In this document: positions 1,234-23,365 of the stretch, in pieces
How the letters are laid out: the number at the start of each line of letters is the position of its first letter
How positions within the stretch are numbered: the stretch's first letter is position 1
Source: Candidatus Heimdallarchaeum aukensis
GTDB taxonomy: Archaea > Asgardarchaeota > Heimdallarchaeia > Heimdallarchaeales > Heimdallarchaeaceae
DNA length: 64,000 nucleotides
Reading direction: 5' to 3'
Assembly: GCA_021513695.1 (NCBI GenBank)
Contig: CP084166.1
Location: 2,656,001 to 2,720,000, forward strand
The notes under the pieces: generated by a model
Databases searched by the model: none
Seen by the model: the letters and a program-made list of their open reading frames with translations, nothing else
What the model was told of the DNA's origin: nothing
Made by a program: the position numbers and the translations under genes

Positions 1234-1235
1234 AA

Positions 1236-3226: not shown

Positions 3227-3629
3227 ATATATAAAAATAGGAAAAGAAGAAAAAGAATTCATTAGTAAAATAGAAGATATCAGCGGACAGAATCTATATG
3301 CATGTTATCAATGTGGAAAATGTACCGCTGGATGTTCTTTTAGTAATCAGATGGATCTTACAGTAAACCAAGTTATTCATAGATTACAACTTGGGCAAAA
3401 AGAAAAAGTGCTGAGTGCAAAGAGTCCTTGGGTATGTGCGAGTTGTTTGACTTGTACAGTTAGATGCCCACGAGATATTGACGTAGCTGCAATAATGGAG
3501 TCAGTAAGAGAATACATTCTACGTTATGAACCTGAGAGAATAGAAAGAATGAAAGTTACAGGAGAAAAAGCTAAAAACTTGCCTAACATTGCCCTCGTAG
3601 GTAGTTTTAGGAAGAATACTGAATTATAA
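3216..3629 (+). CDS. HdrC-like protein with two 4Fe-4S cluster motifs.
   Basis: Two CxxCxxCxxxC(P) motifs (CYQCGKCTAGCS; CASCLTCTVRCP) in a 137-aa protein. It lies upstream of an HdrB-like gene. Confidence 0.6.
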   Translation: MSFEYIKIGKEEKEFISKIEDISGQNLYACYQCGKCTAGCSFSNQMDLTVNQVIHRLQLGQKEKVLSAKSPWVCASCLTCTVRCPRDIDVAAIMESVREYILRYEPERIERMKVTGEKAKNLPNIALVGSFRKNTEL

Positions 3630-3641
3630 TAGGTGAATTAA

Positions 3642-4532
3642 ATGAAATATTCATATTTTCCAGGATGTAATCTCAAAACAAATGCAAAGGAATATGAACA
3701 TACAGCTGTTGAAGTTTCTAAAATATTAGATGCTGAACTTGTAGAAATGCCAGTGTTTAATTGCTGTGGGACAGTTCATAGTATGGCTTCAGATAATACT
3801 ATGAGGAGAATCGCCCCTGTACGTATTCTTTCAAGATCAGAAGAGCACCAAAAAGAGTTGGAAGATACAAATAACACAGTTGTAACTCTATGTTCCATGT
3901 GTAGTTCAACACTTAAAGTAGTAAATGAAGAAGTAAAAGAAGATGAAGAAATGCTACAGAAAATAAACTGGCAGCTAGAAAGAGATAACTTAAAATATTC
4001 TGGCCATTCGGAAGTCAAACACTATTTAGAAATACTTAGAGATGAAGTTGGTTTTGAAGAAATTGTTAAAAAGGTTAAAAAACAACTTAAAGGAATGAAA
4101 GTTGCTTCTTATTACGGTTGCATGCTGTTACACCCAGATAAAGCTAAAATTGATGACAGCGAAACACCAACAGTGATGGAAACCCTTACCCTTGCACTCG
4201 GAGCAGAAGTAGTTGATTGGCCTTATTTTAAAACTTGTTGCGGTTCTTACCATGTAGTAGACAAAGAAGATATCGTAAACAATCAAATTCTAAAAATAAC
4301 GGAGGGTGCTAAAAAAAGAGGAGCTAATGCTATAATTACTGCTTGTCCTTTATGTGCCTATAATCTTGATAGTCAGCAAGTATTTTTACAGAAAAAAGGA
4401 ATAATAAAAGAAACTATACCTATCTTCTACTTTACTCAACTTATGGCAATAGCTCTAGGAATAAAATTAGAAAATTTTGAAGATCATCATGTAGATCCTA
4501 AACCTTTACTAAAAAGTCTAGGATTAATTTAA
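3642..4532 (+). CDS. HdrB-like protein with two CCG (Cys-rich) domains.
   Basis: Two CCG-domain signatures (FNCCGTVHS...CSMCSS; KTCCGSYH...CPLCAYN), as in heterodisulfide reductase B / SdhE / TfrB C-terminal domains. Confidence 0.7.
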   Translation: MKYSYFPGCNLKTNAKEYEHTAVEVSKILDAELVEMPVFNCCGTVHSMASDNTMRRIAPVRILSRSEEHQKELEDTNNTVVTLCSMCSSTLKVVNEEVKEDEEMLQKINWQLERDNLKYSGHSEVKHYLEILRDEVGFEEIVKKVKKQLKGMKVASYYGCMLLHPDKAKIDDSETPTVMETLTLALGAEVVDWPYFKTCCGSYHVVDKEDIVNNQILKITEGAKKRGANAIITACPLCAYNLDSQQVFLQKKGIIKETIPIFYFTQLMAIALGIKLENFEDHHVDPKPLLKSLGLI

Positions 4533-9394: not shown

Positions 9395-10801
9395 TTAGAT
9401 AAAATCTCCCGTTTCTATTTTCTGTGGGAGGTAGAAGTTTGTAATAAATTGTGGGTCACGTGCATTTAATGCTTGTATTTCTGCTTTATAACCTGTATTT
9501 ATTAGGATTTCAAGTTGTTCTTGCCATTTTGGTTTTCTCTTTACGAACTCTTCTTCAAGCATTAACTTTGATCTTCTTATGTCTTTTTGAGTCATTTTGA
9601 TTAGTGCTTCTCTAGGAATATCAAATCCACTTTCAGGTTTTAGATCACTTGGGAGCAAACCTAACCATTTAATATTTGGCACTGCAAGATGGGTTGATTC
9701 GAAACTAAGAGCTTTACTTCCAACGCTATATACTCTCATGATTTCGAATCCGTAAGGGTCAGCATCCATAATGGCAAGAATAGGTAATTGTAAGTCATCA
9801 TTTATTTTCTTTAGAAACTGTCTTGTTGCCATGTCAGGTTGACCTTTAGCTGTAACTAAAATGCTTGGTACATAATCGTAAAAATGGTCTTCTGCTAACC
9901 TGTTAAAAATAGCATCTTTTTCAATAACTAAACAAAATTCAGCATCACTTTCTAAATCTTCGATGTCATCTATATTTGGTGAAATAGCTTTTCCTGAACC
10001 GATAGCTCTACAATCTATAAGATCACCCTTTTCCTTGAATTGTAACTTTCCTACAACAATACCTTTAGACGATGCACTAACATTTAGTGAAGTCCTCGTA
10101 GCTTGTATCATTGCTCCTAAATCTTCAATAAGAGAGTCTGATACTGCTTGTTTCTTAAACGCATTCACATTCATGTAGAAAATATCTCTTTTTGTACTGT
10201 GAATATCACGTGATAGTATGTCATGAAGAAGTCTCATTAATATTGACATTTGTTCAATCGTGCTTACAGAGGATAAACTCCTAAATTGGCGTTCTATCAT
10301 TTGTCTACCAATAAGTACTAATTCTTGTTCTTCATCAAAACCAATATTTCTCTTTCCTCTTGAAGGAATTTTAAAACTAGCTTCATCAGGTTTGTTAAGT
10401 GCTTCATTCAAAAATAATAATGCTGCTTCAACAATTTTATTTTTAGCTTTTTCCGAAGACATTGTTTCTACATTAGTTACACCATAAGGTAACTCATAAT
10501 CCTGCAATAAAGTAAGTTCGTTTCTAAGTTTCCTTATTTTATCAACTGGAACTTTTCTTTTTATTTCAATTCTCATTAATTCTTTCTTAAGAGGATAATT
10601 ACCTAAGGTTTTACCTTTCTCTAGAGGATACCACTTCTTTCCGCTTCTCAAAAAGAGTACAAAAGATCCTTTTTTAAGTTCAAATTCTTCTTGTAATATT
10701 TGAAATAATTCATTTATCTGAATACTGTTATCAAAACTCATTTTTACTTCAGTTGAAGGCAATATTGTTGCATTTTTTACTAAAAAATTATAGTTTACCA
10801 T
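9395..10801 (-). CDS. top6A: DNA topoisomerase VI subunit A (Spo11 homologue) with an N-terminal extension of roughly 80-90 aa.
   Basis: CAP/winged-helix region with the catalytic tyrosine motif TKRDIFYMN. Toprim domain: LVIEKDAIFNRL...VTAKGQPDMATRQFLKKI...ILAIMDADPYGFEIM. The gene lies 10 nt downstream of the top6B stop (canonical top6B-top6A operon). Confidence 0.85.
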   Translation of the reverse strand: MVNYNFLVKNATILPSTEVKMSFDNSIQINELFQILQEEFELKKGSFVLFLRSGKKWYPLEKGKTLGNYPLKKELMRIEIKRKVPVDKIRKLRNELTLLQDYELPYGVTNVETMSSEKAKNKIVEAALLFLNEALNKPDEASFKIPSRGKRNIGFDEEQELVLIGRQMIERQFRSLSSVSTIEQMSILMRLLHDILSRDIHSTKRDIFYMNVNAFKKQAVSDSLIEDLGAMIQATRTSLNVSASSKGIVVGKLQFKEKGDLIDCRAIGSGKAISPNIDDIEDLESDAEFCLVIEKDAIFNRLAEDHFYDYVPSILVTAKGQPDMATRQFLKKINDDLQLPILAIMDADPYGFEIMRVYSVGSKALSFESTHLAVPNIKWLGLLPSDLKPESGFDIPREALIKMTQKDIRRSKLMLEEEFVKRKPKWQEQLEILINTGYKAEIQALNARDPQFITNFYLPQKIETGDFI

Positions 10802-10810
10802 TTTTCCACC

Positions 10811-13800
10811 TCATTTTGTACTCCTTTTTTTGGTTTCAATTTTTGTATCAGCTGAAATTTCATCTAAAGTTGTTTGTTTTGTTCGCTTTGAAGTTGTTGT
10901 TTTCTTTGTTGTTGTACTTGGTCTCTTTGTTTTAGTAGTCGTTGTTTTCTTTGTTGTTGTACTTGGTCTCTTTGTTTTAGTAGTCGTTGTTTTCTTTGTT
11001 GTTGTACTTGGTCTCTTTGCTTTGGTAGTCGTTGTTTTTACAAAAGGAATTGTCTGTTTGATCTTCTTTATATCATTATAAGTCATCTCTAGCTTTCCTT
11101 CAAGCTGAGATGTCGGATAAGCAATAAATTCTCCAATTGTATTAATTCCAAGTGAGTTCAACTTATTTCGTATTTGCTGTTTAACATCTAATTTTTCTAT
11201 TGGCTCTTCTATTAACTTTAGTAATTTTTGAACATTTTTGTTTTTGAAAATATCTTTTCTCTTCGTACGATTATCAGCAAATATCAACTCTTCAAACGAA
11301 GATATCCCTATTTCTTTTAATTTTGATATAATCTCACTGCTCATAAATGGTGTACTTTTCACTATTTGCGTTTTACCCTTCTTTGCAATTTTTAGAGATT
11401 GAGGAGTTAAAGTTGCAAAATAGTTTCTTAACTGCCTTTCTGTTATATTAGTAATTTCAGTCAGTTCGTTAATTTTTGTATTAAAAACATCCCAGAGAGA
11501 ATACTTCTGTTTATGGTATAATTTAAAGATACTGTTTGGTTTATCCTGCATTAGTGCATAGAATGAGTAAATTGGGTATGAAAGAAGTTCTTTTAATGTG
11601 GATATCTGTCTGATTGATAACTCTGTTTGTTCTTTAATTCTCTTATCAGAAACTGATAAATGTATAATGTGGGAATACCCACCGTTTTCCAATATGGATT
11701 TTTCAGTATCTGAAAATAGACCTAAATCTTTAATCCTATAGCTATTTAGTTCTAATTGCTCTTTCACTTTAGTCATGTTAAGAGAGTTAAGAAGTTCAGT
11801 AAATTCTGCACGTTGTTTTTCTGTAAATTTAATCTGTAAATCATCTATATTTTGTAGGAAGAAAAGATCATAAACTTGTTCATAACCTCTTTTTGCTAGT
11901 TGAAAAAGTATATTCTTTTGACGTATAAATAATGCTAATGATGCTCTAAAACAAGAAAGAACATCTTTTACTTTCATGGATAAGTCGCTGATATTTTTCT
12001 CTTCAAACAAAGCAATTAGTTCACCTAATGAATTTATATCATTTTCATTTAGCTCGTTAATTATTTCTTTATCGTTTACAAAATCTATAAGTTTAGAATT
12101 GCTTTGAGATGCTAATGAATCTAGATCATGGAACGGAATTTGAGATAAAAGGTTTTTAAGGACAGTTATGTTTGAAGATTTATTTAATAATAGTAAATCA
12201 TAAACTGTTTTTGTATTACTTTTTAGTAGAAGCCTAAATGTTTCCTTACTCTCAAAGACAAGTGGAAGAGAGTAAATTTTTTGTTCAATTCTTAAACGGA
12301 GTTTTTCCGTGATCTTCCATCTCTTTGAAGTTTTTGATTTTGATACAATATTAAACACGTAAGCCTCTTCTATAGAGAAAATGTGACCTTGACTTAAAAC
12401 ATCTAATTCAGTTTTATCCAAAATTGTTTCAGGAATGGGGGTTAACTTAGATGCTAGAGTACGTAATGTTTCTAGTGATAGATTTCGAATCTGACGTATT
12501 AGTCTATTATCGTCGATTATCTGACTTAACTGGTATCTAGGTTTTAAAATTAAATCTCCTATTGTTAAGTTGCCATATTGTTTGAATTTCTCTTTATTTT
12601 CAAAACTTTCATTGACTAGCAAAATAACATGCCTATTTAGAAATTGTAAGTATTCATTAAAGTGTAAAGTTATGGTCTCTGGGAAAGAACTTGTAATTTT
12701 GTCAAATTGCTTTTTATCATATTTCTCCAAGAGAAGTAAGGATTCAAGGGTATATTGGACTTTTAGTTCATCTTTTTCAGGAAGATTCAACTTTTCTTCG
12801 AATTTGGTTGGTTTTGAGAAAATAAATGAGTAAATATCAAGTAGTCTCTTGGATACTTGAGAATTTACTTTTAGAGAATCATGATGTATATTGAAGAAAA
12901 CTAATTGTTGAAAACTTAAGTCTGGGAGTTTTTCGTCAAAATATCGCGAAGAGAGTTTTTGTAAAAGTCCAATTTTTGTTCTTAATGAAGGTGAAAGGTT
13001 AGAAACAACATCAGTGTTTTCAAAGAGATCAAGATAATTCTTAATACCATTTTCTCTCAATTCAGCAATATCAAAATCTTGTAGAACAATGTTTGTTTTT
13101 AGAGCAGGGGGGTTGCTTATTCTAGAAATAGTAATCTTACTAAGAAAAGTGTCAACTTCACTAATGTTTGTGCTTATAATTTTTGCAAGAGCTGGCTTAG
13201 ATAACAAAAGCATTTCTTGTAGAGTACTTACTTTGGATAAAAGTTTTAACCAATTTTCGAGAGGAAGTTGTGGGAAAGAAATCAGATAAATAGATTTGTT
13301 TAATATCTTTTGAACATTATTTCGTAATTTACTTCTCAATTTACAGTGTTTTTTTGATAAATCATAAACCAAATCGTCAATAACTGTATAATATTTCAGT
13401 AATTTTTTCTTTGTTTCACTATCAAACAGCATAATATTGGAAAGTTGAACTCTTTTATCTCTCAATTTTTTAATTGTTTTAACATTCAAAGTTGAGAGAA
13501 CATGATTAACTTTCTCAAGTTGTTTTTCTGATAAGAATGAAGAATATGAAATAGGTTTAATTAGTAAATCCTTTAGTGTTTCGATTTTATGTTCATTCAG
13601 TTTTTCTACTTCTTTTTCAGTGAAATCTGTTATTATAGAGACAGAACTGTTAAGGAGGTTTAGAATCTCTAATCCTGTTTTAGTAAGAAACTCTTTGTTC
13701 ATGTATAAAACAGAAATAAAATCAATGATATTTGAGATCTCTGGAATTTCAATGTTTTTGCTGAATAAGTTTTTTGAATTAATAGTACCAAGAAAATCTT

Positions 13801-16800
13801 TTGTCTTTAACGTAAGAGATAATGTTTTCTTTTTATCTTTAATCAGATTACTAATTATGGTGTTATAATCACCAAAGCTGACTAGTTGATCGTTTTTAAC
13901 AAGATCTCTGATGGTGAAAAGATTGTTGTCAAAGTATTTTGTTTCAATCTCTTCAAATTTTAAGGAGTTAATAGAGCTTAAGAATAGGATTGATGTATCT
14001 AAAATTTGTTTTATTTTTGTTCTTATTTTTTCTATCTTTTTAATATCATAAAGCCAGTTGTATATTGAATTCTCTTCTAAATCTGAAAAACTATAGAATC
14101 CATAAGATAACAAAGTAGATTTTTCTTTTTCACTAAGAAATGGTAAATCTACAAAATGATTTGGCTTATCTTTTTCAATTGTTTTCTTGATTTTATCAAT
14201 CTTTATTGATGAGCGTAGTTTCAATATTTGATCAAGTTTAATCCTTGATTCTTTTGCGACTGTTTTATACGGAATAAGCAGTAGATCTGCGATAGTGTAT
14301 GTTCCACCTTTTTTAAGGTTAGTTTCTATTTTCTCTTCTAGTCCTAAATATCGAATATTGGCTAGTAAATATGGGCTAATTTCTGCAAATATGCTCTTAT
14401 CTTTTAGATTAACATCTCCAAGTAATTCTTGATAAGATAAGTACCCAAGTTTCATTGCTTTTTCTTCATATGAACCTAAAGGAGGAATAAAACTTTCAAG
14501 ATGTAGATTTTTTAACATTGATAGACTTGATAAAATTTCATCAACCATTGCATCATCTAGATTTTGGATAGAGGAAATAACATCTATAATGTAAACTAAC
14601 TTCTTGTTATAACAAGATTTTATTGTATCTAATGTCAATATAGGTAGATTGTTTATGTTTCTACTTAATTTCATTCTAATATCTTTAATTTCTTCAATGT
14701 ATGAATCTGGTAGGCTTAAGAAAAACTCTTCAGGGAAGTAATATAGATATTCAATTGAGAAAACTCCCAAACTGTATAGCTTTTGAACTAATGACTTATT
14801 TAACTTTAAGTTTGCAATATCAAGAGTAGAGAATTGAAGGGAAGATAGATTCCTAATGAAAAGAGAATTGTTCTCTTTTATGGCTTTATCCAATTTTGGG
14901 AGAAGGGTTTCCCACAGGTGAATAGGAATATGAAGGTAGTCATAATATGTTTTTTTATTTTTTAAAGATTCATTAATATTTTTTGTTGAAATCCCGAGTA
15001 TACGCTCAATTGTCTTTATTGGTGTAAAGAGAATAGGTATATTCACTATCAACTTTTCTTTTTCATCTTTGTTTATTTCTAATTGATCTACATCATGATA
15101 AAATAGTTGAATTAAAGAGTAAATCTCATTTTCATTAAGATATTCGATTGTAGAAACCTCGGGTTTTTTGATTGTTTTTGGACTAGTACCTTCTTTAGCT
15201 TCACGTTTTTTAATAAGTGGAAGTTTACCCTCTTTTGTTAGTTCTTTTTCAGTTAAGGATGGTAAAAGGTTTAAGTCGATTCCATAGAGTTTAAGTTCAG
15301 AAACAATATTTCTTTTACTAATCTGTAATTTAATAGTGTTTATCTCTTTATACTCTATTTCAAATAATTTACCCAAAGAAACTGATGGAATAGATAAAAA
15401 TTCAAGTATAGTGTTAATCTTATTTTCAAAGAGAATAGAGTTTTGTTGCAATGAAAGTGAACTTAAGAAGGAAATTGGAGTTGTTCCAAACAATGAGAGA
15501 GTCTTTTTTATTGATGATAAATTCTTATCTTCTGAACTGTAATCCTGTAAACAAAGAAGTTGATCTAAATACTCAATATTAATCTTTTTTAGATATAGCT
15601 TCTGTTGTTTGGACAAAAATTTTACATCACGTAACTTAATTGCCCATTTAGGTATTTGAAAATCAGATAAAGAACTTACTACATATTCTGCTAGTTCTAT
15701 GTCAATATTGTCTGGAGGAAGAAGTAATAAATCAAGAATAAGTTTTTTATCTTCCTTCATCAAATTTCTCAAAAACTCAAGCTGATCTATTTGAGAAAAT
15801 TTATCTAACCAAATAATTGGATATTTTACCATACTTGTAAGAGAATTAGAATTACTAAAGAGAATTTGAGAACTTATGACAAATGGTTGAGGAAGCAGAT
15901 CTAGTAGATTAATAACATCGGGAGAGGTCTTAATGTCTAGTTTATCACTTTTATTTGATAGAATGTCCAGATGATCTTTGGGAATTAAGTTAACTAATTT
16001 TTCTTTAGAAAATTCTTTTACAAAACGGATAATCTCACTTCTAGCATTTGATGGAATAGTTCTCTTTTCTTCAGAGCTAAGAGTAAGAAGTTCAATAATA
16101 TTTTTAACTCCATTTTTCCATAAATCAAGTTTGACGTCTAAACTCATGTCTGAGATAGAAAAAATATTTAGACATAAACCATAGATTAGTTCTTCAAGTT
16201 TAGCAATACTACTCGCTTTTTCTATTTTTTCACTTTCTGAGAATATAAGCAAGTATTCTGGTACCAACCCAAAGATATCTTCAAATGATGCTTTTGAAAG
16301 GTTGAATTTAAAGTCTGTGAGTGTACTTATTAATTCTTTATCTTCTTCAAGAATAGGTATGCCTGAACTAAGGCTTATGTTTCCCTTTCTTTTATCTTTT
16401 AACTCTTCAGGAATGGAATTGAATATCTTCTTAAGATCTTTTTCTCTAACTATAAAGAGGTCAATAACTCGTAGAATGCGGTTTTTTGCAAGACTACGTT
16501 TAATAAAGCGTGAAAGGTTTGAAATTCTGAAGACTGAAGAGTTACAAAGAGAGAGAAAATTATCAATATTTTCCTTAAATTCTTCAGAAAATGATTTTAT
16601 TTGATAACAAAGACCATAAAGATCTTGAACTGTGTCCTTATTCAGTTTTTGTAAGCTAAGAAGATTTCTCTTTGACAATAACGCAAGAGATTCAAGTTTT
16701 ATTCCTTTTTCTTCAACTTCATTTAGTATTTTTTTAACTGAAATATTTTCTTTTATTTTGATAATTTCAGTTTCAGGTATGTCTAAAATTAATGATATCG

Positions 16801-19800
16801 TAGTGATGTCTTCTGTTAAGAAGGTGAGTATATCCCCGACGCCAGAATAAACAAGTTTTAACATTTGTTCTAACTCTAAATCCAAGAAGAATACAGATGA
16901 GAGATACAACTTTGCTTCTTTAAATACATTCATGTTCACTAGATATGGGTATGATTTTCTGATTTCAGACATTCTAGAAATGAAGTCTTGAATTGAATAA
17001 ATCCCTAATTCATGTAATTTTTCTACATATTCACTTGTTATTGATGGACAATTTTCTAGAGGAATTGCAAAACGAAGTCTTTTCTCTTTTAATTCATCTA
17101 AAGATAACAAGTCAAATATATGAAATTCATCATAAATAGGATTGTTTAGAATTTGTGATAATTGTCCTTTTTCAAAAAGAGACAAATCGATTACTGAGTG
17201 AATATCCTGTAATTCTAGTTTCTTTATTTCTTCAAAAGACAAGAAACTAAGAAAAGTTATTGAACCTGATAATATTTCTTTAAATTCTCTATATTTCTCT
17301 TGCTTTAAGATACTGGATGCACCCATTCTTACTCCAGCATAGTACAAAGTTTCTATGTCTGATATTCCTATATCTCGTAATTTAGAAATTTCAGTTTCCG
17401 TGATGAGAGAAGAAGGCATAATAGGGTGAGATCTTGCTTTGTGTAATTCAACAATTTCACTATAAGATAGATTTTCCTTTATTTCATTAATCCTTTTTTG
17501 TGTTTCATTAGATATTTCAGAAAGTTTTTTGGTTGGTGTTGAATAAAAGTCTATTAATGTTGTAATTGAAGATCTGCTAAGAGGAAGAGCAAGATTAACG
17601 TCCAAGTTTAGTGAAGAAATAGGAATAGACAAATCACCTATAAGTTTATCTAAACTATTTTCTTCACCTAGTTTGTTTTTAATTTCCAAGAGAGGAGAGT
17701 TCTCCTCGAATTCAAGTTCAAATAAGCTCCCTAAAGTAATTATAAAGTATTTATTCCTCATATCTTCACTTAAAAGATTGAGAAAAGGTGTAATTCCAAG
17801 TGGTAATTCAAAAACTGAACGAATAAGTGTAATGTTACATTTTTCAAAAGCTAATTGTCTTTCAAATTCGCTGAGGGTTTTTATCAAATCTGTGCTGGAA
17901 ATAACATCAAGTAATGTTAACTCTTCAATATCTTCCAGAATAGTAGAAAAGAAGTCTTTATTGTAAGCAGTTGCAGAAAGAAAATCAAAGTAGTGATAAG
18001 CTCTCAAGTCAATTAATTTAGAAGAATAGTCTGAAACAGTTCTAAATAGCGTTCTATCCGTTAAATCGCTATCTAATATGAATATTAAATGGTAAAGGTG
18101 GGTTATTTGGTTTTGATTAAAAATAGTCAAAGAATAATCTGAAATCTCCTGAAAAATCCGTAAAGGAAGTGATAATATTTTCTTTAATGTGAAAACTTTT
18201 CTCCAGATTGATGAGTTTCTGTCGATGAAAACTTCATCGGGACAGTAGAAAAGTTCTTGAATTGATTGAAATCCTTCATAACTGTAAATTGTTTCTCTAC
18301 TTAGCGTTCTTTGTTCATTTTTGTCAAAAAGTCTAGTTTCATATGCATAGATTGCTCGCGCCTCATATTCTTCTCTTATTCTCTGTGATGTTAAAATGTC
18401 AATTATTTCCTTTGTTTCTTTTGTTGTAATGTTTAGGATATTACTGAGTTTAACAGATGAAGTAGAAACGAAATCAACTATAGTTAATATACCCGCTTTT
18501 CTCAATTCTTCAGTTTGTGAAAAAGAGATATTTGGTAAGAAATAAACAGGGAGACTGAAAAAGTAAAAAATTTCACCAAGATCTAGACTTCTCTTAATAT
18601 TATCAAAACGTTCGTCGGGAATCCCTGTTCTTTCCATTAGAACTTTAGATGACGTAAGTAGAAAACCTAACAATGTATTTATTTTGTTTTTCTTTAAGAG
18701 CTTAATTATATCTGGATCTAACATGTCTGACAAGTGCTTAAATCGTAAATTTAGCACATTTTTTAAATTCTGAACTATCTCCCATGGAATTGTTCTTATT
18801 GCCCATTTTTCTTGCTGAGTAGAAAAGTATAGGTCCTCAATGGTAAAGATGTTGTTAGTTTCTAAAATTTCTACTATCGATGGTCTAAAGATATCAAGTT
18901 CAGAAATATCTGTTCCAGTTTCACTAATCCTGATATTTTTCTTGTATTTTTTAGCTTCTTCTAAATCAATTTTTAAAATAGAAGCGATTGTTTCATCACT
19001 AACAAGGAAAAAGTCAATGATTCTTCTGATTCCAGTTTTTCTTAGAGCATTCAGCTGTTCATGGGATAAGCTTGTTATTTCAATTTCTTCAATTTCTTCC
19101 TCTTGTTTTGTTTCTTCATTTAATATCTTCTTCTTTGTGGTTTTTTCCCAAGTAACTAGCGTCAGGGGAGAACGCAATAGTTTCTTGAATTTTTCAATTA
19201 CACCCCATTTTATTATGGGAGCACCAAAAGTGTAAGGGTGTGTTAAATAAAATAGCTGGTCTATAGAATTGTAACCAATAACAAGTAAAGAACGGATTTC
19301 TTCAGGTGAAAAACGTTCTGAATTTTCAAAATCAAAGGAGATTATTGATTCATACTTACCACTAGATACTTTCTCGTAGAATGGTTGTCCATCTCTATTT
19401 ACATCAAAATTGTTTATTAACTCATCAAAATTCTTCTTTGAAAAATTAAGTATCGTGCTTAATTCATCAAAACTGTAATTTAAAAATTGGTGCAGAGAGT
19501 AAATCTTTTTTGAAGCTAATACTTCATAATCTTTAAGTTTCAAGCTTTTTATACGAGTGATTGGTAATTGCAAAAACTGATAGAAATCAATTATTTCGTG
19601 AGATAACAAAACTTTTTCTGCAAACTCATCAGTATCTTTAAGATTTTTACTATTTATATTGTCGTAGAGTTCAAGTAAAATTTTTTTGTCTTTATTTTTT
19701 GAAATTTCTGTCTCAATAAATACAGGTGTAAGTTGAAGGAAATCTCTTATTGTATTTACATCCTTGGTTTTGAGCTTAAGAAGAGCATCATTCAATGACT

Positions 19801-21732
19801 TTGCTTTAGATTTTGTTGGGGCTAACTTTGCTAAAAATATTAGATCTTCATTCATGAATTCTCTAAAGTTATTCATCTTAGTTAAAAGATCTGAAATCGA
19901 CGGAAGTTCTTCTTCAATATAAAAGTAAAACAACTCTTGTATTGTTGTTTGTTGTTCATTGAATTGCTTAACCAATCTTGGAAAGTGTTTTTTTATTATT
20001 TTTAAATTTCCTTTGTATCTTTCTTTATTTTTTGTAATCTTGTTAGCAGATATACTTTGTTTTAGACGTATAATTTCTTGTTCGTTAAGGTTTAATACCA
20101 AAGAGAGTTCTTTATTACTCCATATTAGAAACCTGCCTATACAGTTTACTCCAATTTCATTCAAAACGTTAATTTTCTCGTTTAGTTCAGGAAAAGCAAA
20201 AATCAAGGGAGTTCGTAATAGTAAGTAATCTGAAACATATTGTTTCTTTGTTTGTTCATCTTTAAATTCAAAATTCTCTGGTTGAGAATATAGAATGTCC
20301 TCTACTGTATAAATTTCATATTTACTTGCTTTGTTCTTCAAAGATAGAAAGTTAGGAATGGGCGTACCTATCTTTTTCTTTATTCTTGCAATCTCGCTTT
20401 TTAATAAACCCATTTCGCGTAATTTTTTCGATGGTGTAATCAAGAATGATGTGGAAGTAAATATCTTGTTTTCTAGCAATTTTTCTTCAGCTTTTTCACT
20501 AATCACTTTTAAGTGTGATAGGTCAAGGTCTTTATTTACTTCATTAAGATGAGAAAGAATGCGAAACTTTGATTCTTCTAATAGACTATCAACAAAAACA
20601 CTTAGTTCTTTTTTCATTAACGTTCTTAATTTAGCGTTTGCATATTGTGCTAAGGTTTCTATATTCGCTGATTTAAGACTGTCTAGTATGTTTTTTCTTA
20701 TATTGTCATCTATGGTTGATATTAGTCCTAGTTTGTTAAGAGGGATAGATCTCTCGCTGTTAGCTAGAATAGTGAAAAATCTAGTATAAATAGAACGCTC
20801 TAATTCTTTGATTTCTAAAAGGTCTTTAGTTGGCGTTTTAAGAAAATTATCTATTGTCTCTATCTTTCTTCTATGAAAAGCATTTTTAGAATATCCATCT
20901 ATCCAATCAGGTTTCATTTTTGTAATGTTGACCTTTAGAAAATCAGGAAACTTTTCTGAAACATGTGAAAATACCTTTTTAACGTAATCAATCAACATTT
21001 CTGTTAAATCATTATCATATTTAAACGAAAAAGGCTCATTGAACTTATAAATAAAATCCTCTAACCCCTTAAACTTATTTGAAAAGTTGGGATAACTTGT
21101 TTTTATATAATTGAAATCTGGATACAGAAATTCTTCTTTTAACTCTGAATAATCAGACATAGTTTCTAAATTAAATTTAAATTCTTCGATAAAGATCGAC
21201 AACTCTACTGTTTCTTGGCCATCTTGAGATTTTGTAACTTCGTTAATTAGCTTAAATTTGTTATCTTCTATTAGACGTTCTACTAAACCTTCAACTAAAC
21301 GCAATTGTGTAGCTTCTGTAGCTAAATAATGATAGCTATTTTGAATCCATCTTTGATATAATGCTTCATTGAAACTACTACTAGTTCCTTGACGTGCAAA
21401 CCTCTTATCTATCATTTTATTTGTTAATGCTTTTAGTGGGAGTTCAGGGCTCAACTTAGACCTGTCTAGTTCATAAATTGTTCTTTGTTTTATTCTTGAA
21501 ACTTCTTTTTTTGAAAGATTCAAAATAGGAGCTAGTTCTGAAACAGGTATGGAAAGAAACTTTCCAATTGTTAAAATATCACTTTTAGCACAACTTTTCT
21601 TGTATTTATCAGGGCACCACACATTAAGTTCAAAAATGGGTGTCCCTAAAGGAACAAAATTTCTAATTTTCTTTTTTGCTCCGTGAGCTAGAGCTGCTGC
21701 AACTTTATATTTTTCTTTATTTATGTTTGTAT
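10811..21732 (-). other. C-terminal extension of the giant protein. A tandem array of degenerate helix-hairpin-helix (HhH)-like DNA-binding motifs (I can see more than 20 by eye). It resembles RNAP alpha-CTD / Topo V style (HhH)2 units.
   Basis: The pattern L..[LIV]G[IVLF].[ST][IV].[DE][LF]......EL..I.GI....A..I recurs. Examples: LRKAGILTIVDFVSTSSVKLSNILNITTKETKEIIDIL; KLHELGIYSIQDFISRMSEIRK; LRDIGISDIETLYYAGVRMGASSIL; LYSLGVFSIEYLYYFPEEFF; LRENGIKNYLDLFENTDVVSNLSPSLRTKIG; LKEIGISSFEELIFAD; LNSLGINTIGEFIAYPTSQLEG. There are no long exact DNA repeats, so the array is ancient and diverged. Confidence 0.55.
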
Positions 21733-23365
21733 AAACTATTTTTTCATTCTCTAAAATTCTTGCGAGGTTATCAATTACAACAGGTGCTGATCGTACAAAA
21801 CGGGATAATCGTGCATGTTCTCTTTTCCTTCTTTTTGCTCTACTAAGGAATGTTTTAAGTCTTCTACCAAGTTGTTGTAAAGCTAACCTAATCTCTTCTT
21901 CAATTTCTGGGACGGTTGAGATATACTCCTTACTCGTTTCAGGAAAAGGTATTTTTGTACTTACAATTGATACTGCAATCGCGAGAGGATCTGATTGTCT
22001 TGTAAGACCGTATTCACTCCAATTAAGCGAAGAAACTACTTTTGTAATAACGTCATTTCCCGCACCAAAAATTAAAGGAATTCTATTTGCATATCGATAA
22101 ATTATTTTGTTGTCGACTGACGTGCTTCCTTTTTGTTGAGCATATTTTGATACTCCCCCCCCATAACCTATTGCTGCTTCAACGATAAAAGGATGACCAG
22201 AATAAGCTTTTGGAGGACGAGAAATCGCTTCTACAAACTCTGGTTCAAGTTCTTTTTCTAAACCTTTTCTTAATCTTGCTGCTCCTAAAGGAGAAAGAGC
22301 ATCACCTTGTGGAGCATCAAATCTAAAGATTCTATCTCTTTTTCTTTTTATTTCTTTAGCCTCTTGGTAGGCTTTGATAAATCCTTCATGAACTATTCTT
22401 CTAATTTCTTTAGAAGTAAGGTCGCTAGGCTTTTTATTAGGGTCAATTTCTAAAATCTGAAAGAACTCTTCAGCTACTTCTTTTCTTACTCCCATAAAAT
22501 CTTTTGACAGAAAATCAACTAGATTTTCTGCAGAAGTAGCAGCAATTTTTGCTTTAAACTGAGTGATATCACATCCAAATGGGTGTAACTGAATTACTTT
22601 AGGAGGGTCGGGCATATCATCTACTACTTTTTGGAAAACTAATGTTTCACTTGTTCCTTCTTCATCTCCTGGAAGAACTACAGTAAAACTTGCATAGGGA
22701 GTAATTATAGCTAATTGTTTAAAATACTCCTTAATACTGTTCTTTGCTAGATTCCAAGCTCCAGTAAAAGTTATACTTATCTCAGTACCGCTAGTGTGCA
22801 AATATCCTGGGTCATCTGGATTATATTCGTGTTGTTCCATAATAACAGGTTCATTTTTTTCCAAGTTGATCATTAAATGAACTTCTGTAGTCATTTCTTC
22901 CATGAAGTATCTGCTCTTTATCCTTGCAGGAAGATCTACAGATGACATAGAATGTAGTAGACACATCTTGGCTCCTAAACCAAATCTGCCTCTAGTTTGA
23001 ATTACTCCATATTTTGTTCCTGTTAATACTCTACCAAAAAGATTTGGAATCTCATGACCAGGAACACCTACACCGTTATCTCTACATGTTAACTGAAGAA
23101 AATCAAGATGTTTTTCTAACTGTTTATATCTGGTAATATCTAATAATTCATTAATTTCAGAACTTGATAACTTCCTTAATTCAATATATATTTCAGGGTT
23201 CACACCTAGTTTTTCTGCTGCATCTAAGCCATTCTCGACCAATTCTCTAACAGAGGTAAAAACAGCTCGCATCGAGTTGCCAAAACCTGCAATGGCCTTA
23301 TTTTCATTGAAGAAAGCAGCTGCACTCATTTTTCGTGTTTTATTTTCTTCAGCCACAAAATTCAC
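10811..23365 (-). CDS. top6B: Giant 4184-aa protein. An N-terminal complete topoisomerase VI subunit B module (GHKL ATPase, H2TH, transducer) is fused to a huge C-terminal extension of about 3640 aa. The extension is built of HhH-like repeats and ends in a basic K/T-rich tail.
   Basis: A single uninterrupted 12.5 kb ORF in a roughly 30% GC genome. N-terminal motifs: Bergerat N-box ELVENGLDAAE, G1 box CRDNGVGVP, G2 box TRGRFGLGAK, transducer motif IYRYANRIPLIFGAGNDV, and a long C-terminal helix of the transducer. All plus-strand ORFs inside are short antisense shadows. Confidence 0.85.
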   Translation of the reverse strand: MNFVAEENKTRKMSAAAFFNENKAIAGFGNSMRAVFTSVRELVENGLDAAEKLGVNPEIYIELRKLSSSEINELLDITRYKQLEKHLDFLQLTCRDNGVGVPGHEIPNLFGRVLTGTKYGVIQTRGRFGLGAKMCLLHSMSSVDLPARIKSRYFMEEMTTEVHLMINLEKNEPVIMEQHEYNPDDPGYLHTSGTEISITFTGAWNLAKNSIKEYFKQLAIITPYASFTVVLPGDEEGTSETLVFQKVVDDMPDPPKVIQLHPFGCDITQFKAKIAATSAENLVDFLSKDFMGVRKEVAEEFFQILEIDPNKKPSDLTSKEIRRIVHEGFIKAYQEAKEIKRKRDRIFRFDAPQGDALSPLGAARLRKGLEKELEPEFVEAISRPPKAYSGHPFIVEAAIGYGGGVSKYAQQKGSTSVDNKIIYRYANRIPLIFGAGNDVITKVVSSLNWSEYGLTRQSDPLAIAVSIVSTKIPFPETSKEYISTVPEIEEEIRLALQQLGRRLKTFLSRAKRRKREHARLSRFVRSAPVVIDNLARILENEKIVYTNINKEKYKVAAALAHGAKKKIRNFVPLGTPIFELNVWCPDKYKKSCAKSDILTIGKFLSIPVSELAPILNLSKKEVSRIKQRTIYELDRSKLSPELPLKALTNKMIDKRFARQGTSSSFNEALYQRWIQNSYHYLATEATQLRLVEGLVERLIEDNKFKLINEVTKSQDGQETVELSIFIEEFKFNLETMSDYSELKEEFLYPDFNYIKTSYPNFSNKFKGLEDFIYKFNEPFSFKYDNDLTEMLIDYVKKVFSHVSEKFPDFLKVNITKMKPDWIDGYSKNAFHRRKIETIDNFLKTPTKDLLEIKELERSIYTRFFTILANSERSIPLNKLGLISTIDDNIRKNILDSLKSANIETLAQYANAKLRTLMKKELSVFVDSLLEESKFRILSHLNEVNKDLDLSHLKVISEKAEEKLLENKIFTSTSFLITPSKKLREMGLLKSEIARIKKKIGTPIPNFLSLKNKASKYEIYTVEDILYSQPENFEFKDEQTKKQYVSDYLLLRTPLIFAFPELNEKINVLNEIGVNCIGRFLIWSNKELSLVLNLNEQEIIRLKQSISANKITKNKERYKGNLKIIKKHFPRLVKQFNEQQTTIQELFYFYIEEELPSISDLLTKMNNFREFMNEDLIFLAKLAPTKSKAKSLNDALLKLKTKDVNTIRDFLQLTPVFIETEISKNKDKKILLELYDNINSKNLKDTDEFAEKVLLSHEIIDFYQFLQLPITRIKSLKLKDYEVLASKKIYSLHQFLNYSFDELSTILNFSKKNFDELINNFDVNRDGQPFYEKVSSGKYESIISFDFENSERFSPEEIRSLLVIGYNSIDQLFYLTHPYTFGAPIIKWGVIEKFKKLLRSPLTLVTWEKTTKKKILNEETKQEEEIEEIEITSLSHEQLNALRKTGIRRIIDFFLVSDETIASILKIDLEEAKKYKKNIRISETGTDISELDIFRPSIVEILETNNIFTIEDLYFSTQQEKWAIRTIPWEIVQNLKNVLNLRFKHLSDMLDPDIIKLLKKNKINTLLGFLLTSSKVLMERTGIPDERFDNIKRSLDLGEIFYFFSLPVYFLPNISFSQTEELRKAGILTIVDFVSTSSVKLSNILNITTKETKEIIDILTSQRIREEYEARAIYAYETRLFDKNEQRTLSRETIYSYEGFQSIQELFYCPDEVFIDRNSSIWRKVFTLKKILSLPLRIFQEISDYSLTIFNQNQITHLYHLIFILDSDLTDRTLFRTVSDYSSKLIDLRAYHYFDFLSATAYNKDFFSTILEDIEELTLLDVISSTDLIKTLSEFERQLAFEKCNITLIRSVFELPLGITPFLNLLSEDMRNKYFIITLGSLFELEFEENSPLLEIKNKLGEENSLDKLIGDLSIPISSLNLDVNLALPLSRSSITTLIDFYSTPTKKLSEISNETQKRINEIKENLSYSEIVELHKARSHPIMPSSLITETEISKLRDIGISDIETLYYAGVRMGASSILKQEKYREFKEILSGSITFLSFLSFEEIKKLELQDIHSVIDLSLFEKGQLSQILNNPIYDEFHIFDLLSLDELKEKRLRFAIPLENCPSITSEYVEKLHELGIYSIQDFISRMSEIRKSYPYLVNMNVFKEAKLYLSSVFFLDLELEQMLKLVYSGVGDILTFLTEDITTISLILDIPETEIIKIKENISVKKILNEVEEKGIKLESLALLSKRNLLSLQKLNKDTVQDLYGLCYQIKSFSEEFKENIDNFLSLCNSSVFRISNLSRFIKRSLAKNRILRVIDLFIVREKDLKKIFNSIPEELKDKRKGNISLSSGIPILEEDKELISTLTDFKFNLSKASFEDIFGLVPEYLLIFSESEKIEKASSIAKLEELIYGLCLNIFSISDMSLDVKLDLWKNGVKNIIELLTLSSEEKRTIPSNARSEIIRFVKEFSKEKLVNLIPKDHLDILSNKSDKLDIKTSPDVINLLDLLPQPFVISSQILFSNSNSLTSMVKYPIIWLDKFSQIDQLEFLRNLMKEDKKLILDLLLLPPDNIDIELAEYVVSSLSDFQIPKWAIKLRDVKFLSKQQKLYLKKINIEYLDQLLCLQDYSSEDKNLSSIKKTLSLFGTTPISFLSSLSLQQNSILFENKINTILEFLSIPSVSLGKLFEIEYKEINTIKLQISKRNIVSELKLYGIDLNLLPSLTEKELTKEGKLPLIKKREAKEGTSPKTIKKPEVSTIEYLNENEIYSLIQLFYHDVDQLEINKDEKEKLIVNIPILFTPIKTIERILGISTKNINESLKNKKTYYDYLHIPIHLWETLLPKLDKAIKENNSLFIRNLSSLQFSTLDIANLKLNKSLVQKLYSLGVFSIEYLYYFPEEFFLSLPDSYIEEIKDIRMKLSRNINNLPILTLDTIKSCYNKKLVYIIDVISSIQNLDDAMVDEILSSLSMLKNLHLESFIPPLGSYEEKAMKLGYLSYQELLGDVNLKDKSIFAEISPYLLANIRYLGLEEKIETNLKKGGTYTIADLLLIPYKTVAKESRIKLDQILKLRSSIKIDKIKKTIEKDKPNHFVDLPFLSEKEKSTLLSYGFYSFSDLEENSIYNWLYDIKKIEKIRTKIKQILDTSILFLSSINSLKFEEIETKYFDNNLFTIRDLVKNDQLVSFGDYNTIISNLIKDKKKTLSLTLKTKDFLGTINSKNLFSKNIEIPEISNIIDFISVLYMNKEFLTKTGLEILNLLNSSVSIITDFTEKEVEKLNEHKIETLKDLLIKPISYSSFLSEKQLEKVNHVLSTLNVKTIKKLRDKRVQLSNIMLFDSETKKKLLKYYTVIDDLVYDLSKKHCKLRSKLRNNVQKILNKSIYLISFPQLPLENWLKLLSKVSTLQEMLLLSKPALAKIISTNISEVDTFLSKITISRISNPPALKTNIVLQDFDIAELRENGIKNYLDLFENTDVVSNLSPSLRTKIGLLQKLSSRYFDEKLPDLSFQQLVFFNIHHDSLKVNSQVSKRLLDIYSFIFSKPTKFEEKLNLPEKDELKVQYTLESLLLLEKYDKKQFDKITSSFPETITLHFNEYLQFLNRHVILLVNESFENKEKFKQYGNLTIGDLILKPRYQLSQIIDDNRLIRQIRNLSLETLRTLASKLTPIPETILDKTELDVLSQGHIFSIEEAYVFNIVSKSKTSKRWKITEKLRLRIEQKIYSLPLVFESKETFRLLLKSNTKTVYDLLLLNKSSNITVLKNLLSQIPFHDLDSLASQSNSKLIDFVNDKEIINELNENDINSLGELIALFEEKNISDLSMKVKDVLSCFRASLALFIRQKNILFQLAKRGYEQVYDLFFLQNIDDLQIKFTEKQRAEFTELLNSLNMTKVKEQLELNSYRIKDLGLFSDTEKSILENGGYSHIIHLSVSDKRIKEQTELSIRQISTLKELLSYPIYSFYALMQDKPNSIFKLYHKQKYSLWDVFNTKINELTEITNITERQLRNYFATLTPQSLKIAKKGKTQIVKSTPFMSSEIISKLKEIGISSFEELIFADNRTKRKDIFKNKNVQKLLKLIEEPIEKLDVKQQIRNKLNSLGINTIGEFIAYPTSQLEGKLEMTYNDIKKIKQTIPFVKTTTTKAKRPSTTTKKTTTTKTKRPSTTTKKTTTTKTKRPSTTTKKTTTSKRTKQTTLDEISADTKIETKKRSTK
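10896..11030 (-). repeat. Near-perfect 3 x 45-nt direct tandem DNA repeat. It encodes a KTKRPSTTTKKTTTT x3 basic Lys/Thr-rich C-terminal tail of the giant protein.
   Basis: Unit gttgttttctttgttgttgtacttggtctctttgttttagtagtc occurs at 10896-10940 and 10941-10985, and at 10986-11030 with 2 substitutions. A partial degenerate copy lies upstream. The unit is in-frame (15 aa). Confidence 0.9.
21733..23365 (-). other. TopoVI-B homologous region of the giant protein (aa 1 to about 545). Comprises the GHKL/Bergerat ATPase, H2TH domain and transducer.
   Basis: Motif positions counted in the translation: N-box at aa 41-50, G1 at about aa 95-102, G2 at about aa 124-133, transducer RYANRIPL at aa 424-431, and a C-terminal helix extending to about aa 545. 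Confidence 0.7.

Follow-up and report, generated by a model that had tools for sequence, protein, structure and literature searches.

A topoisomerase VI B subunit carrying a giant array of predicted helix-hairpin-helix domains in Asgard archaea

The giant top6B gene and its operon

The window, a 64,000-nucleotide stretch of the Candidatus Heimdallarchaeum aukensis genome, contains a single giant top6B ORF on the reverse strand (10811..23365), with a GTG start and 4,184 codons plus a stop. Its first 560 residues (21686..23365, reverse strand) were recognized with Pfam and NCBIfam profiles as a Topo VI subunit B core, consisting of a GHKL ATPase and a transducer domain (Pfam Topo-VIb_trans, 3.5e-57). 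Residues 7-550 pass two NCBIfam equivalogs, NF003218 (470.8 bits, cut-off 274) and TIGR01052 (400.6 bits, cut-off 380.7), and the ATP-binding boxes ELVENGLDA, DNGVG and GRFGLGAKM are present in the core translation. The core is 97.5% identical to that of L001 and 72-76% identical to those of distant orthologues. A preliminary description of this DNA had placed a long extension at 10811-21732, which corresponds to residues 545-4184 and the stop codon of the same ORF, and had assigned it to a type IIB enzyme; the Pfam and equivalog scores identify its carrier as a genuine Top6B.

The gene for the Spo11-type subunit A, top6A (468 aa; 9395..10801, reverse strand), starts 9 nt downstream of the top6B stop and matches Pfam TOP6A-Spo11_Toprim (2.4e-59) and TP6A_N (3.6e-19). 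In all loci with downstream DNA, top6A follows the giant gene; the neighbors of the pair are housekeeping genes, and no tRNA is found nearby. As judged from sequence, these data identify the giant protein as subunit B, the ATPase, of an Asgard Topo VI, predicted to be co-transcribed with subunit A.

A long array of predicted (HhH)2 units

Beyond the core lies an array (aa ~583-4120; 11006..21619, reverse strand) in which HMM searches, hhalign and fold prediction delineated some 29-40 diverged (HhH)2 units; between some of these are segments where no unit was detected. More than 20 copies of a repeat pattern had been noted by eye, and all four peptides quoted as examples were found in the ORF translation. 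A loose regular expression of that pattern gave 15 sites in the protein. An HMM seeded on 14 regex sites and iterated on the protein itself found 28 units at a domain E-value of at most 0.01, compared with 5 in total, or 0.1 each, in 50 residue-shuffled extensions. A deeper HMM applied to 19 full-length orthologues yielded 49 positional clusters, 37 of them present in at least 10 orthologues. When windows of the ortholog alignment were compared with the unit alignment by hhalign, 29 units were recovered at a probability of at least 85% and approximately 10 more at 50-85%. These counts lie far above the shuffled background, and the estimate of more than 20 copies is therefore correct.

Unit spacing is 57-63 aa at residues 1430-1609 and comparable elsewhere in the array; the domains directly abut one another. 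Models were made of a single unit (aa 1429-1494; 18884..19081, reverse strand) and of three abutting units with the same 57-63 aa spacing (aa 1489-1660; 18386..18901, reverse strand), the latter with AF2 and Foldseek. By hhalign, about one third of the extension has no recognizable unit (for example, aa 646-820, 1770-1916 and 2468-2632), and the model is of low confidence there. A homology search with a 1,051-aa piece of the extension returned three fragments only.

Several lines of evidence assign the units to the HhH family, as had been proposed. With the whole protein, the top Pfam match was RAD51D_N (PF21794; 8.8e-17, 61.5 bits, cut-off 27.3), and RNA_pol_A_CTD (PF03118) matched in four stretches (27.7 bits, cut-off 23.8). 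When 27 units were scanned one by one, RAD51D_N was found in seven and RNA_pol_A_CTD in six (best single-unit match 7.3e-6), while unrelated families appeared once each, as did TfoX_C and Topo-V_HhH_2_2nd. Against PDB sequences, the unit profile matched dozens of RNAP alpha-CTDs over profile positions 3-54, with E-values from 5.5e-4, as well as DinB, Brr2, RadA and DMC1; against 1.84 billion proteins, it recovered others with 4-12 strong RNA_pol_A_CTD domains in tandem PF03118 arrays. The AF2 model of aa 1489-1660 (pLDDT 70-88) contains three to five short helices per unit, and its local Foldseek matches were the RAD51C NTD, the RadA NTD, AF1548 and the RNAP alpha-CTD. An AlphaFold model of 752 aa built on a four-row alignment gave confident predictions only for its three leading units and for a few further along, with pLDDT below 50 at aa 1662-1945. 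The predicted unit consists of two helix-hairpin-helix motifs in a compact bundle of four to five helices. Profile matches and models together show the units to be (HhH)2 domains by prediction, of the RNA-polymerase-alpha-CTD/RAD51-N-terminal-domain type.

An assignment of the repeats to another alpha-helical class such as HEAT, ARM or TPR, with a superficial likeness to HhH, would suit the all-helical, Leu/Ile/Lys-rich composition and the third of the extension that has no assigned unit. Yet no HEAT, ARM, TPR or other helical-repeat family matched at E<=1, either with the whole protein or with the gap segments between units, whereas the HhH-clan matches were consistent by sequence, profile and structure. 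We regard this assignment as extremely improbable.

Conservation and distribution of the array

Colinear full-length orthologues of 4,140-4,341 aa number 18; they come from MAGs of Heimdallarchaeota and from the complete Ca. Heimdallarchaeum endolithica PR6 genome. Among distant orthologues the extension is 36-38% identical and still colinear over 4,441 alignment columns. The dN/dS ratio is 0.087 and ranges from 0.05 to 0.18 along the whole gene length. Paralogous units within the array are 5-31% identical to one another, and no DNA-level repeats were found in the array; the sole one in the gene is the 45-nt tail repeat described below. The earlier view that the copies are highly diverged at the DNA level, and that the array is old and selected, is thus borne out, and the comparison shows a fixed, position-specific and ancient chain under purifying selection.

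The same data bear on whether the gene could be artefactual or junk, whether through ORFs fused by wrong assembly or gene calling, through recent expansion by slippage, or as a mobile-element giant gene like the aloposon giant genes described in Heimdallarchaeum. Giant genes of mobile elements do exist in these genomes (PMC8813620), and the exact protein, with either possible start, is absent from the gene-position index. Mis-assembly and ORF fusion are ruled out by the uninterrupted ORF in 18 independent assemblies, one of them a closed genome, and by the dN/dS values over the full length; slippage by the lack of DNA repeats in the array; and a mobile-element origin by the operon with top6A, the housekeeping neighbors and the absence of a nearby tRNA. 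We consider the artefact reading effectively refuted, its residual probability being very small.

The array is not confined to this form. By BLAST, Top6Bs of 2,300-3,900 aa from other lineages are colinear with it over the first ~2,000-2,300 aa, and arrays of other lengths are found on Top6B in proteins named Thorarchaeota and Kariarchaeaceae. In Hodarchaeales, the arrays are encoded by genes of their own that lie between top6B and top6A. The gene order at locus L031 (Hodarchaeales) is gyrA, top6B (611 aa), an HhH gene of 617 aa, an HhH gene of 1,033 aa and top6A, and at locus L030 it is top6B (622 aa), a 2,996-aa array gene and top6A. These gene orders show that the array is a separable module, encoded in some lineages by one or two distinct genes.

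The basic C-terminal tail

The protein ends in a basic low-complexity tail rich in T, K, R, P and S (aa 4121-4184; 10814..11005, reverse strand). Tail net charge is +19 in the window (last 74 aa) and +15 to +33 (last 90 aa) in all 19 sequences, while the tail sequence itself is unconserved; this K/T-rich tail is the only strongly basic part of the extension. A tandem DNA repeat (10892..11038, reverse strand; 45 nt x3.3; 97% matches, score 273 with Tandem Repeats Finder) encodes TTTKKTTTTKTKRPS tail copies.

A pattern search located a PIP-box-like motif, KQTTLDEI, within the tail (aa 4163-4170; 10856..10879, reverse strand). Sixteen of the 19 sequences contain the pattern [KR]Q.TL[LMD][DE][MILV] exactly once, 21-38 aa before the C-terminus; two of the three sequences without it are cut by contig ends. 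Distant arrays terminate in QKSLNAF, QKSLNEY or QKTLDAML. PIP boxes follow the terminal consensus Q-x-x-[LIM]-x-x-[FYW]-[FYWL] in a disordered basic context. Relative to this consensus, the window motif KQTTLDEIS retains the Q and the L, has an aliphatic residue at position 7 and does not have the canonical aromatic pair; QKSLNAF and QKSLNEY of the distant arrays carry an aromatic residue at position 7. No link between Topo VI and PCNA was found in a literature search. The tail, the PIP-like motif, the wide Asgard distribution and the split-gene forms were all absent from the preliminary description.

Charge and predicted DNA contacts

The net charge of the array body is about 0 in the window (-1 to +7) and ranges from -89 to +39 across orthologues, and in most distant giant Top6Bs the array is acidic, with a pI of 4.9-5.9. 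Unit charge is position-specific and partly conserved among orthologues (r=0.51), and both conserved basic and conserved acidic units exist. Compared with the canonical pattern h-x-x-h-x-G-h-G-x-x-x-A-x-x-h, the hydrophobic spacing is retained but the GhG glycines are mostly gone: Gly is found in 52% of units at hairpin 1, which has the longer loop of the alpha-CTD type, whereas in hairpin 2 the first of the two Gly positions keeps it in 18%, and the second is occupied by S, P, K or T. No basic residue is invariant across the unit alignment.

In the E. coli alpha subunit, the alpha-CTD binds UP-element DNA through the '265 determinant', which includes R265, N268 and other residues. This determinant is not preserved in the array units. 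The R265-equivalent position (L0-5) is D/E in 35% and K/R in 17%, and the N268 equivalent is E in 21%, K in 15% and N in 10%. Because the array is neutral to acidic, has lost hairpin glycines, contains no invariant basic residue and is more often acidic than basic at the R265 site, most units may make no contact with DNA.

The proposal that the extension acts as a DNA-sliding or clamping arm in the manner of Topo V therefore does not hold up well: the array is neutral to acidic, the GhG motif is mostly lost, and acidic residues outnumber basic ones two to one at the R265 equivalent. In addition, protein-binding (HhH)2 modules, such as the NusA acidic repeats and the RAD51-paralogue NTDs, are among the best fold matches. 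The array could be a protein-protein interaction scaffold or a rigid spacer, with the tail alone touching DNA. Its units, like those modules or SAM domains, would then recruit partners or form a superstructure, and the partners would be chromatin proteins such as histone tails, replisome components or segregation factors. However, the majority of the retrieved (HhH)2 relatives are DNA-binding modules of DNA enzymes, a subset of the units is conserved basic, the module sits on a DNA-transacting enzyme, and no partner is known. We view a pure scaffold as possible, though on balance doubtful.

Comparison with known systems

The closest parallel in layout is Topo V of Methanopyrus kandleri, a type IC enzyme with 12 tandem (HhH)2 domains that make a positively charged track around DNA (PMC9489208). 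In both proteins, a long series of abutting (HhH)2 domains extends C-terminally from a topoisomerase module; these domains have diverged, are constant in number and show no repetition at the DNA level. The resemblance in layout claimed previously stands, although the array does not form a positively charged track. Unlike the type IC swivel, the array sits on a type IIB ATPase subunit, comprises about 30-40 units in 3,600 aa compared with 12 units in ~600 aa, and carries a basic tail and a PIP-like motif. Its units are alpha-CTD/RAD51-NTD-like and only marginally similar to the Topo V repeats, and direct homology to these was rejected, Topo-V_HhH_2_2nd having appeared in one unit scan only.

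Another reading takes the array as a true functional analogue of the Topo V tail, its (HhH)2 units wrapped around a single duplex to form a processivity sleeve. Against it, the interior of the Topo V sleeve is positive (PMC9489208) and the array neutral or acidic, and the array is three to four times as long as wrapping a binding site would require. Topo VI, moreover, works with two gates and senses crossings, unlike a swivel, and sequence affinity to the Topo V repeats is negligible. Such a sleeve is quite improbable.

In sequence-profile comparisons, the unit comes closest to the RNAP alpha-CTD (PF03118); the match spans the full core of ~52 residues and includes the shared signature L-K-x-x-[GA]-I-x-[TY]-[IV]-x-D-L; the N-terminus is Top6B, unlike RNAP alpha with its N-terminal assembly domain. 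The N-terminal (HhH)2 domains of RAD51, RadA and the RAD51 paralogues (PF21794) provided the top Pfam match and the top structural matches. In that family the domain is single and accompanies a recombinase ATPase core, whereas here the domains are arrayed and that core is absent.

C-terminal domains have been described for other archaeal Top6Bs: an Ig-like domain in Methanosarcina mazei and 'globular' extensions in Asgard and DPANN archaea (Villain et al. 2022, PMC9348778), and a 'CTD +' class of Asgard Top6B (Brinkmeier et al. 2022, PMC9665070). As in those proteins, whose hosts mostly also encode gyrase, the appendage follows the transducer domain, and gyrA adjoins top6B in the Hodarchaeales locus. 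The known domains are single and of ~100 residues, in contrast to the 3,600 residues of (HhH)2 units found here. A giant array is also present in a protein named Thorarchaeota, and one of these papers reports that group to lack gyrase; this occurrence is relevant to the published proposal that the C-terminal extensions of Top6B arose in response to gyrase.

Proposed role

Topo VI, the decatenase of archaea, gave rise to the Spo11/TopoVIB-like machinery of meiosis, and little is understood of how the enzyme is directed to chromosomes. The explanation that we favor, with somewhat better than even confidence, is that the (HhH)2 chain of the Asgard Topo VI B subunit serves as a multivalent tether to the chromosome or replisome. 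This reading is based on the basic tail in all orthologues, the motif kept within an otherwise unconserved tail, and the partial conservation of unit charge. Each A2B2 enzyme would carry two very long multivalent arms holding the decatenase on the chromosome. Attachment would occur via the basic tail, the conserved basic subset of units would contact DNA backbones, and the putative terminal PIP-like motif could provide further attachment to PCNA. Conserved acidic units might be protein-contact or spacer modules. The arm would then be a device for localization and avidity rather than a positive sleeve of the Topo V type on one duplex.

A more speculative and rather unlikely proposal is that the array, whether fused or separate, is in effect a third Topo VI subunit, a defined scaffold of more than 100 nm associated with the chromosome that couples decatenation to the replisome through the predicted PCNA motif. 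In eukaryotic Topo II, the C-terminal region is a non-catalytic module that attaches the enzyme to chromatin. Were the third-subunit proposal true, the array would correspond, in a prokaryote, to the C-terminal regions and accessory factors that tether eukaryotic type II topoisomerases to chromatin, and would have arisen in the lineage closest to eukaryotes. The likeness to this region and to the accessory DNA-binding partners of plant Topo VI, RHL1 and BIN4, which are discussed in PMC9665070, is by analogy only; the array, likewise, can be a separate, operon-encoded polypeptide.

To our knowledge, no larger HhH array is known than this arm of ~40 (HhH)2 domains, which is present in several Asgard lineages and at times encoded by separate operon genes. 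A literature search found no paper describing a Top6B HhH-array architecture. The supplements of Wu 2022 do not mention topoisomerase; Extended Data Fig. 7b of that study presents Asgard proteins of more than 3,000 aa with their CDD domains and may include the giant Top6B. In databases, such proteins are annotated merely as 'DNA topoisomerase VI subunit B' or 'hypothetical protein'.

Gene structure and genomic setting

The HhH mega-array that a preliminary description had reported on Top6B, subunit B of topoisomerase VI, was confirmed, with 28 units detected by HMM beyond a complete Top6B core. The span in which it had been described, 10811-21732, corresponds to the 3' four-fifths of a single minus-strand ORF of 4,184 codons (10811-23365). 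Subunit B is complete within aa 1-560 of the encoded protein. Topo-VIb_trans (Pfam) matched the core at 3.5e-57, and two NCBIfam equivalog models aligned over aa 7-550 (NF003218, 470.8 bits with a cut-off of 274; TIGR01052, 400.6 bits with a cut-off of 380.7). The ATP-binding boxes can also be seen in the translation. The ORF opens with a GTG codon 12 codons upstream of the first ATG (23330-23365, minus strand; the ATG begins MSAAAFF…). This GTG looks like the real start, given that the 12 residues are also kept in Ca. Heimdallarchaeum endolithica and that alignment to the family models begins at residue 7-8.

The gene for subunit A, top6A (9395-10801, minus strand; TOP6A-Spo11_Toprim, 2.4e-59), lies 9 nt downstream of top6B. 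Curated Top6A models begin to align at about residue 110 of the 468-aa product, which therefore carries an N-terminal extension of roughly 110 residues. This agrees with the additional N-terminal helix that has been reported in the Top6A of Asgard archaea and eukaryotes (PMC9665070). Because the genes around the pair are ordinary metabolic ones (glutamate dehydrogenase, pyruvate kinase, aldehyde:ferredoxin oxidoreductase and a NiFe hydrogenase subunit) and no tRNA gene was found in the whole 64-kb window, the setting is chromosomal rather than a mobile element.

Identity and fold of the repeat unit

The repeat unit was confirmed to be an (HhH)2 domain of the alpha-CTD/RAD51-NTD kind, as four independent lines agree on the HhH assignment first proposed: Pfam, a profile search of PDB sequences, a large protein search and AlphaFold2/Foldseek. 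In Pfam, the whole protein matched RAD51D_N (8.8e-17) and RNA_pol_A_CTD (27.7 bits), both above the gathering score. When 27 units were scanned singly, RAD51D_N was found in seven and RNA_pol_A_CTD in six, while TfoX_C and Topo-V_HhH_2_2nd matched one unit each, as did each unrelated family. When all PDB sequences were searched with a profile built from the 27 units, dozens of RNA polymerase alpha-CTDs were retrieved over profile positions 3-54 (E from 5.5e-4), along with the HhH regions of DinB, Brr2-Sec63, RadA and DMC1. The sole match scoring above the alpha-CTDs was a designed repeat protein covering only half of the profile. Against 1.84 billion representative proteins, the same profile returned 285 proteins at E<=1e-3, and those checked that lacked a Top6B domain each contained between 4 and 12 strong PF03118 domains (E 1e-37 to 1e-139).

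The unit at aa 1429-1494 was modeled with AlphaFold2 from a 50-row alignment that combined paralogous with orthologous units, giving four short helices at a mean pLDDT of 80.5. In structural comparison, the HhH modules of Pol X, Dpo4, LigA, XPF/Hef, UvrC and endonuclease III ranked behind the best matches. Foldseek was in agreement, matching the NTDs of RadA/RAD51 at a probability of 0.97-1.0. The consensus of 668 instances, L-[ST]-x-x-x-h-x-x-L-k-k-n-G-I-x-T-[ILV]-x-D-[LF]-[LF]-…-L-x-x-I-x-g-[LI]-s-x-k-x-I-x-x-I-K, reproduces the first-hairpin signature of the alpha-CTD and keeps the HhH hydrophobic spacing in the second hairpin. Glycine is present in only 52% of the instances at hairpin 1 and in 18% at hairpin 2.

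Number and arrangement of units

An HMM seeded on 14 regex matches and iterated on the window protein alone converged on the 28 units, each with a core of ~52 residues. The same HMM found five units in total in 50 shuffled extensions, so the repeats are real, and all four peptides quoted in the preliminary description proved to be units. A deeper HMM to which 18 full-length orthologs were added resolved 49 positional clusters, and 37 of these recurred in 10 orthologs or more. Profile-profile comparison (hhalign) of ortholog-alignment windows with the unit alignment gave 29 units at a probability of at least 85% and about 10 more at 50-85%.

The hhalign scan left segments with no recognizable unit at aa 646-820, 1121-1190, 1770-1916, 2335-2402, 2468-2632, 2950-3004, 3178-3243, 3310-3363 and 3471-3582. 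A HEAT/TPR identity was rejected for these segments, since no Pfam family, HEAT and TPR included, was matched. The segment at aa 1770-1916, the only one of them within a 752-residue structural model, was modeled as helical at low confidence. As had been proposed, the copies are diverged at the DNA level. No DNA repeats were found in the array. The gene's sole DNA repeat, a 45-nt tandem repeat (10892-11038; 3.3 copies, 97% identity), encodes the TTTKKTTTTKTKRPS units of the tail.

Orthologs and selection

When 185,579 species genomes were scanned with a degenerate pattern, with aa 1489-1700 as the query, 29 loci were found, nearly all labeled Heimdallarchaeota. The closest locus, 94% identical across the query, lies in the closed genome of Ca. 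Heimdallarchaeum endolithica PR6. Wherever a locus holds the complete gene, there is a single ORF of 4,140-4,305 aa that encodes Top6B at its N-terminus and 23-30 HMM units, and top6A comes immediately after it. The 19 full-length sequences are colinear in 4,441 alignment columns. Distant orthologs share 72-76% identity over the core and 36-38% over the extension, whereas the paralogous units of the array share only 5-31% with one another; the units are thus individually conserved and not recently duplicated. Relative to PR6, dN/dS is 0.015 in the core. In the extension it is 0.087, with 500-codon bins at 0.05-0.18, so the entire arm is clearly under purifying selection.

At aa 3061-4060 (11186-14182, minus strand), the synonymous divergence of top6B from its Ca. 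H. endolithica counterpart is ~0.33, compared with ~0.7-0.9 elsewhere in the gene; dN/dS in this region is still low. The two lineages may have recombined recently within the 3' third of top6B.

Fused and split arrays in other Asgard archaea

The search of representative proteins also recovered other giant Top6Bs of 2,269-3,866 aa with 12-24 HMM-detected units, the named ones coming from Thorarchaeota (2,967 aa) and from Kariarchaeaceae (3,563 aa). All of these are colinear with the window protein over their first ~2,000-2,300 residues. The Top6B of Hodarchaeales and Njordarchaeales is 570-620 aa long. The operon of one Hodarchaeales contig (L031, 1-9620) encodes, in this order, gyrA, a 611-aa Top6B, two HhH proteins of 617 and 1,033 aa, and top6A. 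That of another MAG (L030, 4978-16846) encodes in order a 622-aa Top6B, a 2,996-aa array protein and top6A; the 28-nt overlap between its top6B and array gene may be a genuine boundary between two genes or the result of a frameshift. Array-only proteins of 1,528-1,956 aa were found in Hodarchaeales and 'Promethearchaeota'. Since split array genes lie within top6 operons, the array is a module of Asgard Topo VI that is linked to it by operon but separable, and that is fused to Top6B in the window lineage.

Among the retrieved proteins were unrelated metagenome proteins of 267-1,059 aa made of 4-12 tandem RNA_pol_A_CTD domains (P0023, P0033, P0037, P0040, P0042, P0047, P0050, P0054, P0079 and P0083), indicating that tandem alpha-CTD arrays form a wider protein class. 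One of these, which carries the annotation RNAP alpha subunit, additionally contains a sigma-70 region 4. To our knowledge, the class is unstudied.

Basic tail and array charge

The last 60-90 residues are basic in every ortholog (+15 to +33) and of low complexity (K/T/P/S/A), with no sequence conservation across orthologs except for one embedded motif. Orthologs carry other simple repeats (KPKA, KKTTP, TTAKK) at the place of the 45-nt repeat, so the tail turns over by slippage yet remains basic. In the window protein, whose tail peptide includes SKRTKQTTLDEISADTK, the motif is KQTTLDEI (10856-10879, minus strand; aa 4163-4170). The pattern [KR]Q.TL[LMD][DE][MILV] occurs once each in 16 of the 19 sequences, 21-38 residues before the end, and two of the remaining three are cut by contig ends. 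Distant array proteins terminate in QKSLNAF, QKSLNEY or QKTLDAML. The motif resembles a PIP box and may be a PCNA-binding site, although no link between Topo VI and PCNA was found in the literature.

The evidence for the array as a DNA binder is mixed, and on this point the analysis departs from the preliminary description. The window array body has a net charge of +7 over 3,560 residues, or about 0 (pI 8.0), and orthologous arrays range from -89 to +39. Most of the distant giants are acidic (pI 4.9-5.9; net charge -109 in Thorarchaeota), and the position equivalent to R265 of the alpha-CTD is acidic in 35% of the units and basic in 17%. Charge per unit runs from -8 to +8 and is position-specific, correlating between the window protein and 17 distant orthologs (r=0.51). 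Conserved basic units lie around aa 963, 1198, 2292, 3256 and 4069, and conserved acidic units around aa 1283, 1501, 1557, 1749, 2050 and 2117. Over longer spans, aa ~950-1120 form a conserved basic stretch, aa 1489-1665 a triple unit that is conserved acidic or neutral, and aa 4000-4184 comprise the last two units and the tail. The main rival explanation, less likely but plausible, is that the array is a purely protein-binding scaffold.

We consider chromosome attachment the most likely mechanism. Each A2B2 enzyme would bear two very long arms of ~40 small domains apiece, anchored to the chromosome by the basic tail, by the conserved basic units touching DNA backbones and possibly by PCNA. 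The acidic units would provide protein contacts or serve as spacers. The arms would thereby concentrate a weakly processive, crossing-sensing decatenase at dense or newly replicated DNA. The strict positional conservation of the units argues for a defined architecture and against an interchangeable polymer.

Comparison with topoisomerase V

The extension had also been likened to the (HhH)2 tail of Topo V. The analogy is fair for a convergent layout, as both enzymes have a catalytic module with abutting (HhH)2 domains. That the array works like the tail of Topo V is unsupported, because it is neutral to acidic and its units show no specific kinship to the Topo V repeats. The (HhH)2 domains of Topo V wrap DNA, forming a positively charged track (PMC9489208), whereas the electrostatics here are opposite. 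The window enzyme also belongs to a different enzyme class, and its array is 3-4 times larger.

In archaea that encode gyrase, Asgard among them, Top6B is known to carry C-terminal extensions that differ by lineage and have been described as a globular domain (PMC9348778), and Asgard Top6B has been listed with a CTD (PMC9665070). A multi-thousand-residue HhH array is described neither in these two papers nor in any other retrieved by full-text searching. Asgard proteins >3,000 aa are tabulated in an extended-data figure of Wu et al. 2022 (PMC8813620), which may include this one.

Other genes in the window

Directly upstream of top6B, a 978-aa ORF (23504-26440, minus strand) contains LVIVD repeats (9.7e-9) and matches the CD36 family below threshold; no link between it and Topo VI was found. 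A 379-aa ORF (30959-32098, plus strand) with a weak match to the Tubulin/FtsZ GTPase domain (E 3.2e-7; 31.3 bits, gathering score 33) could be a divergent Asgard protein of the tubulin superfamily.
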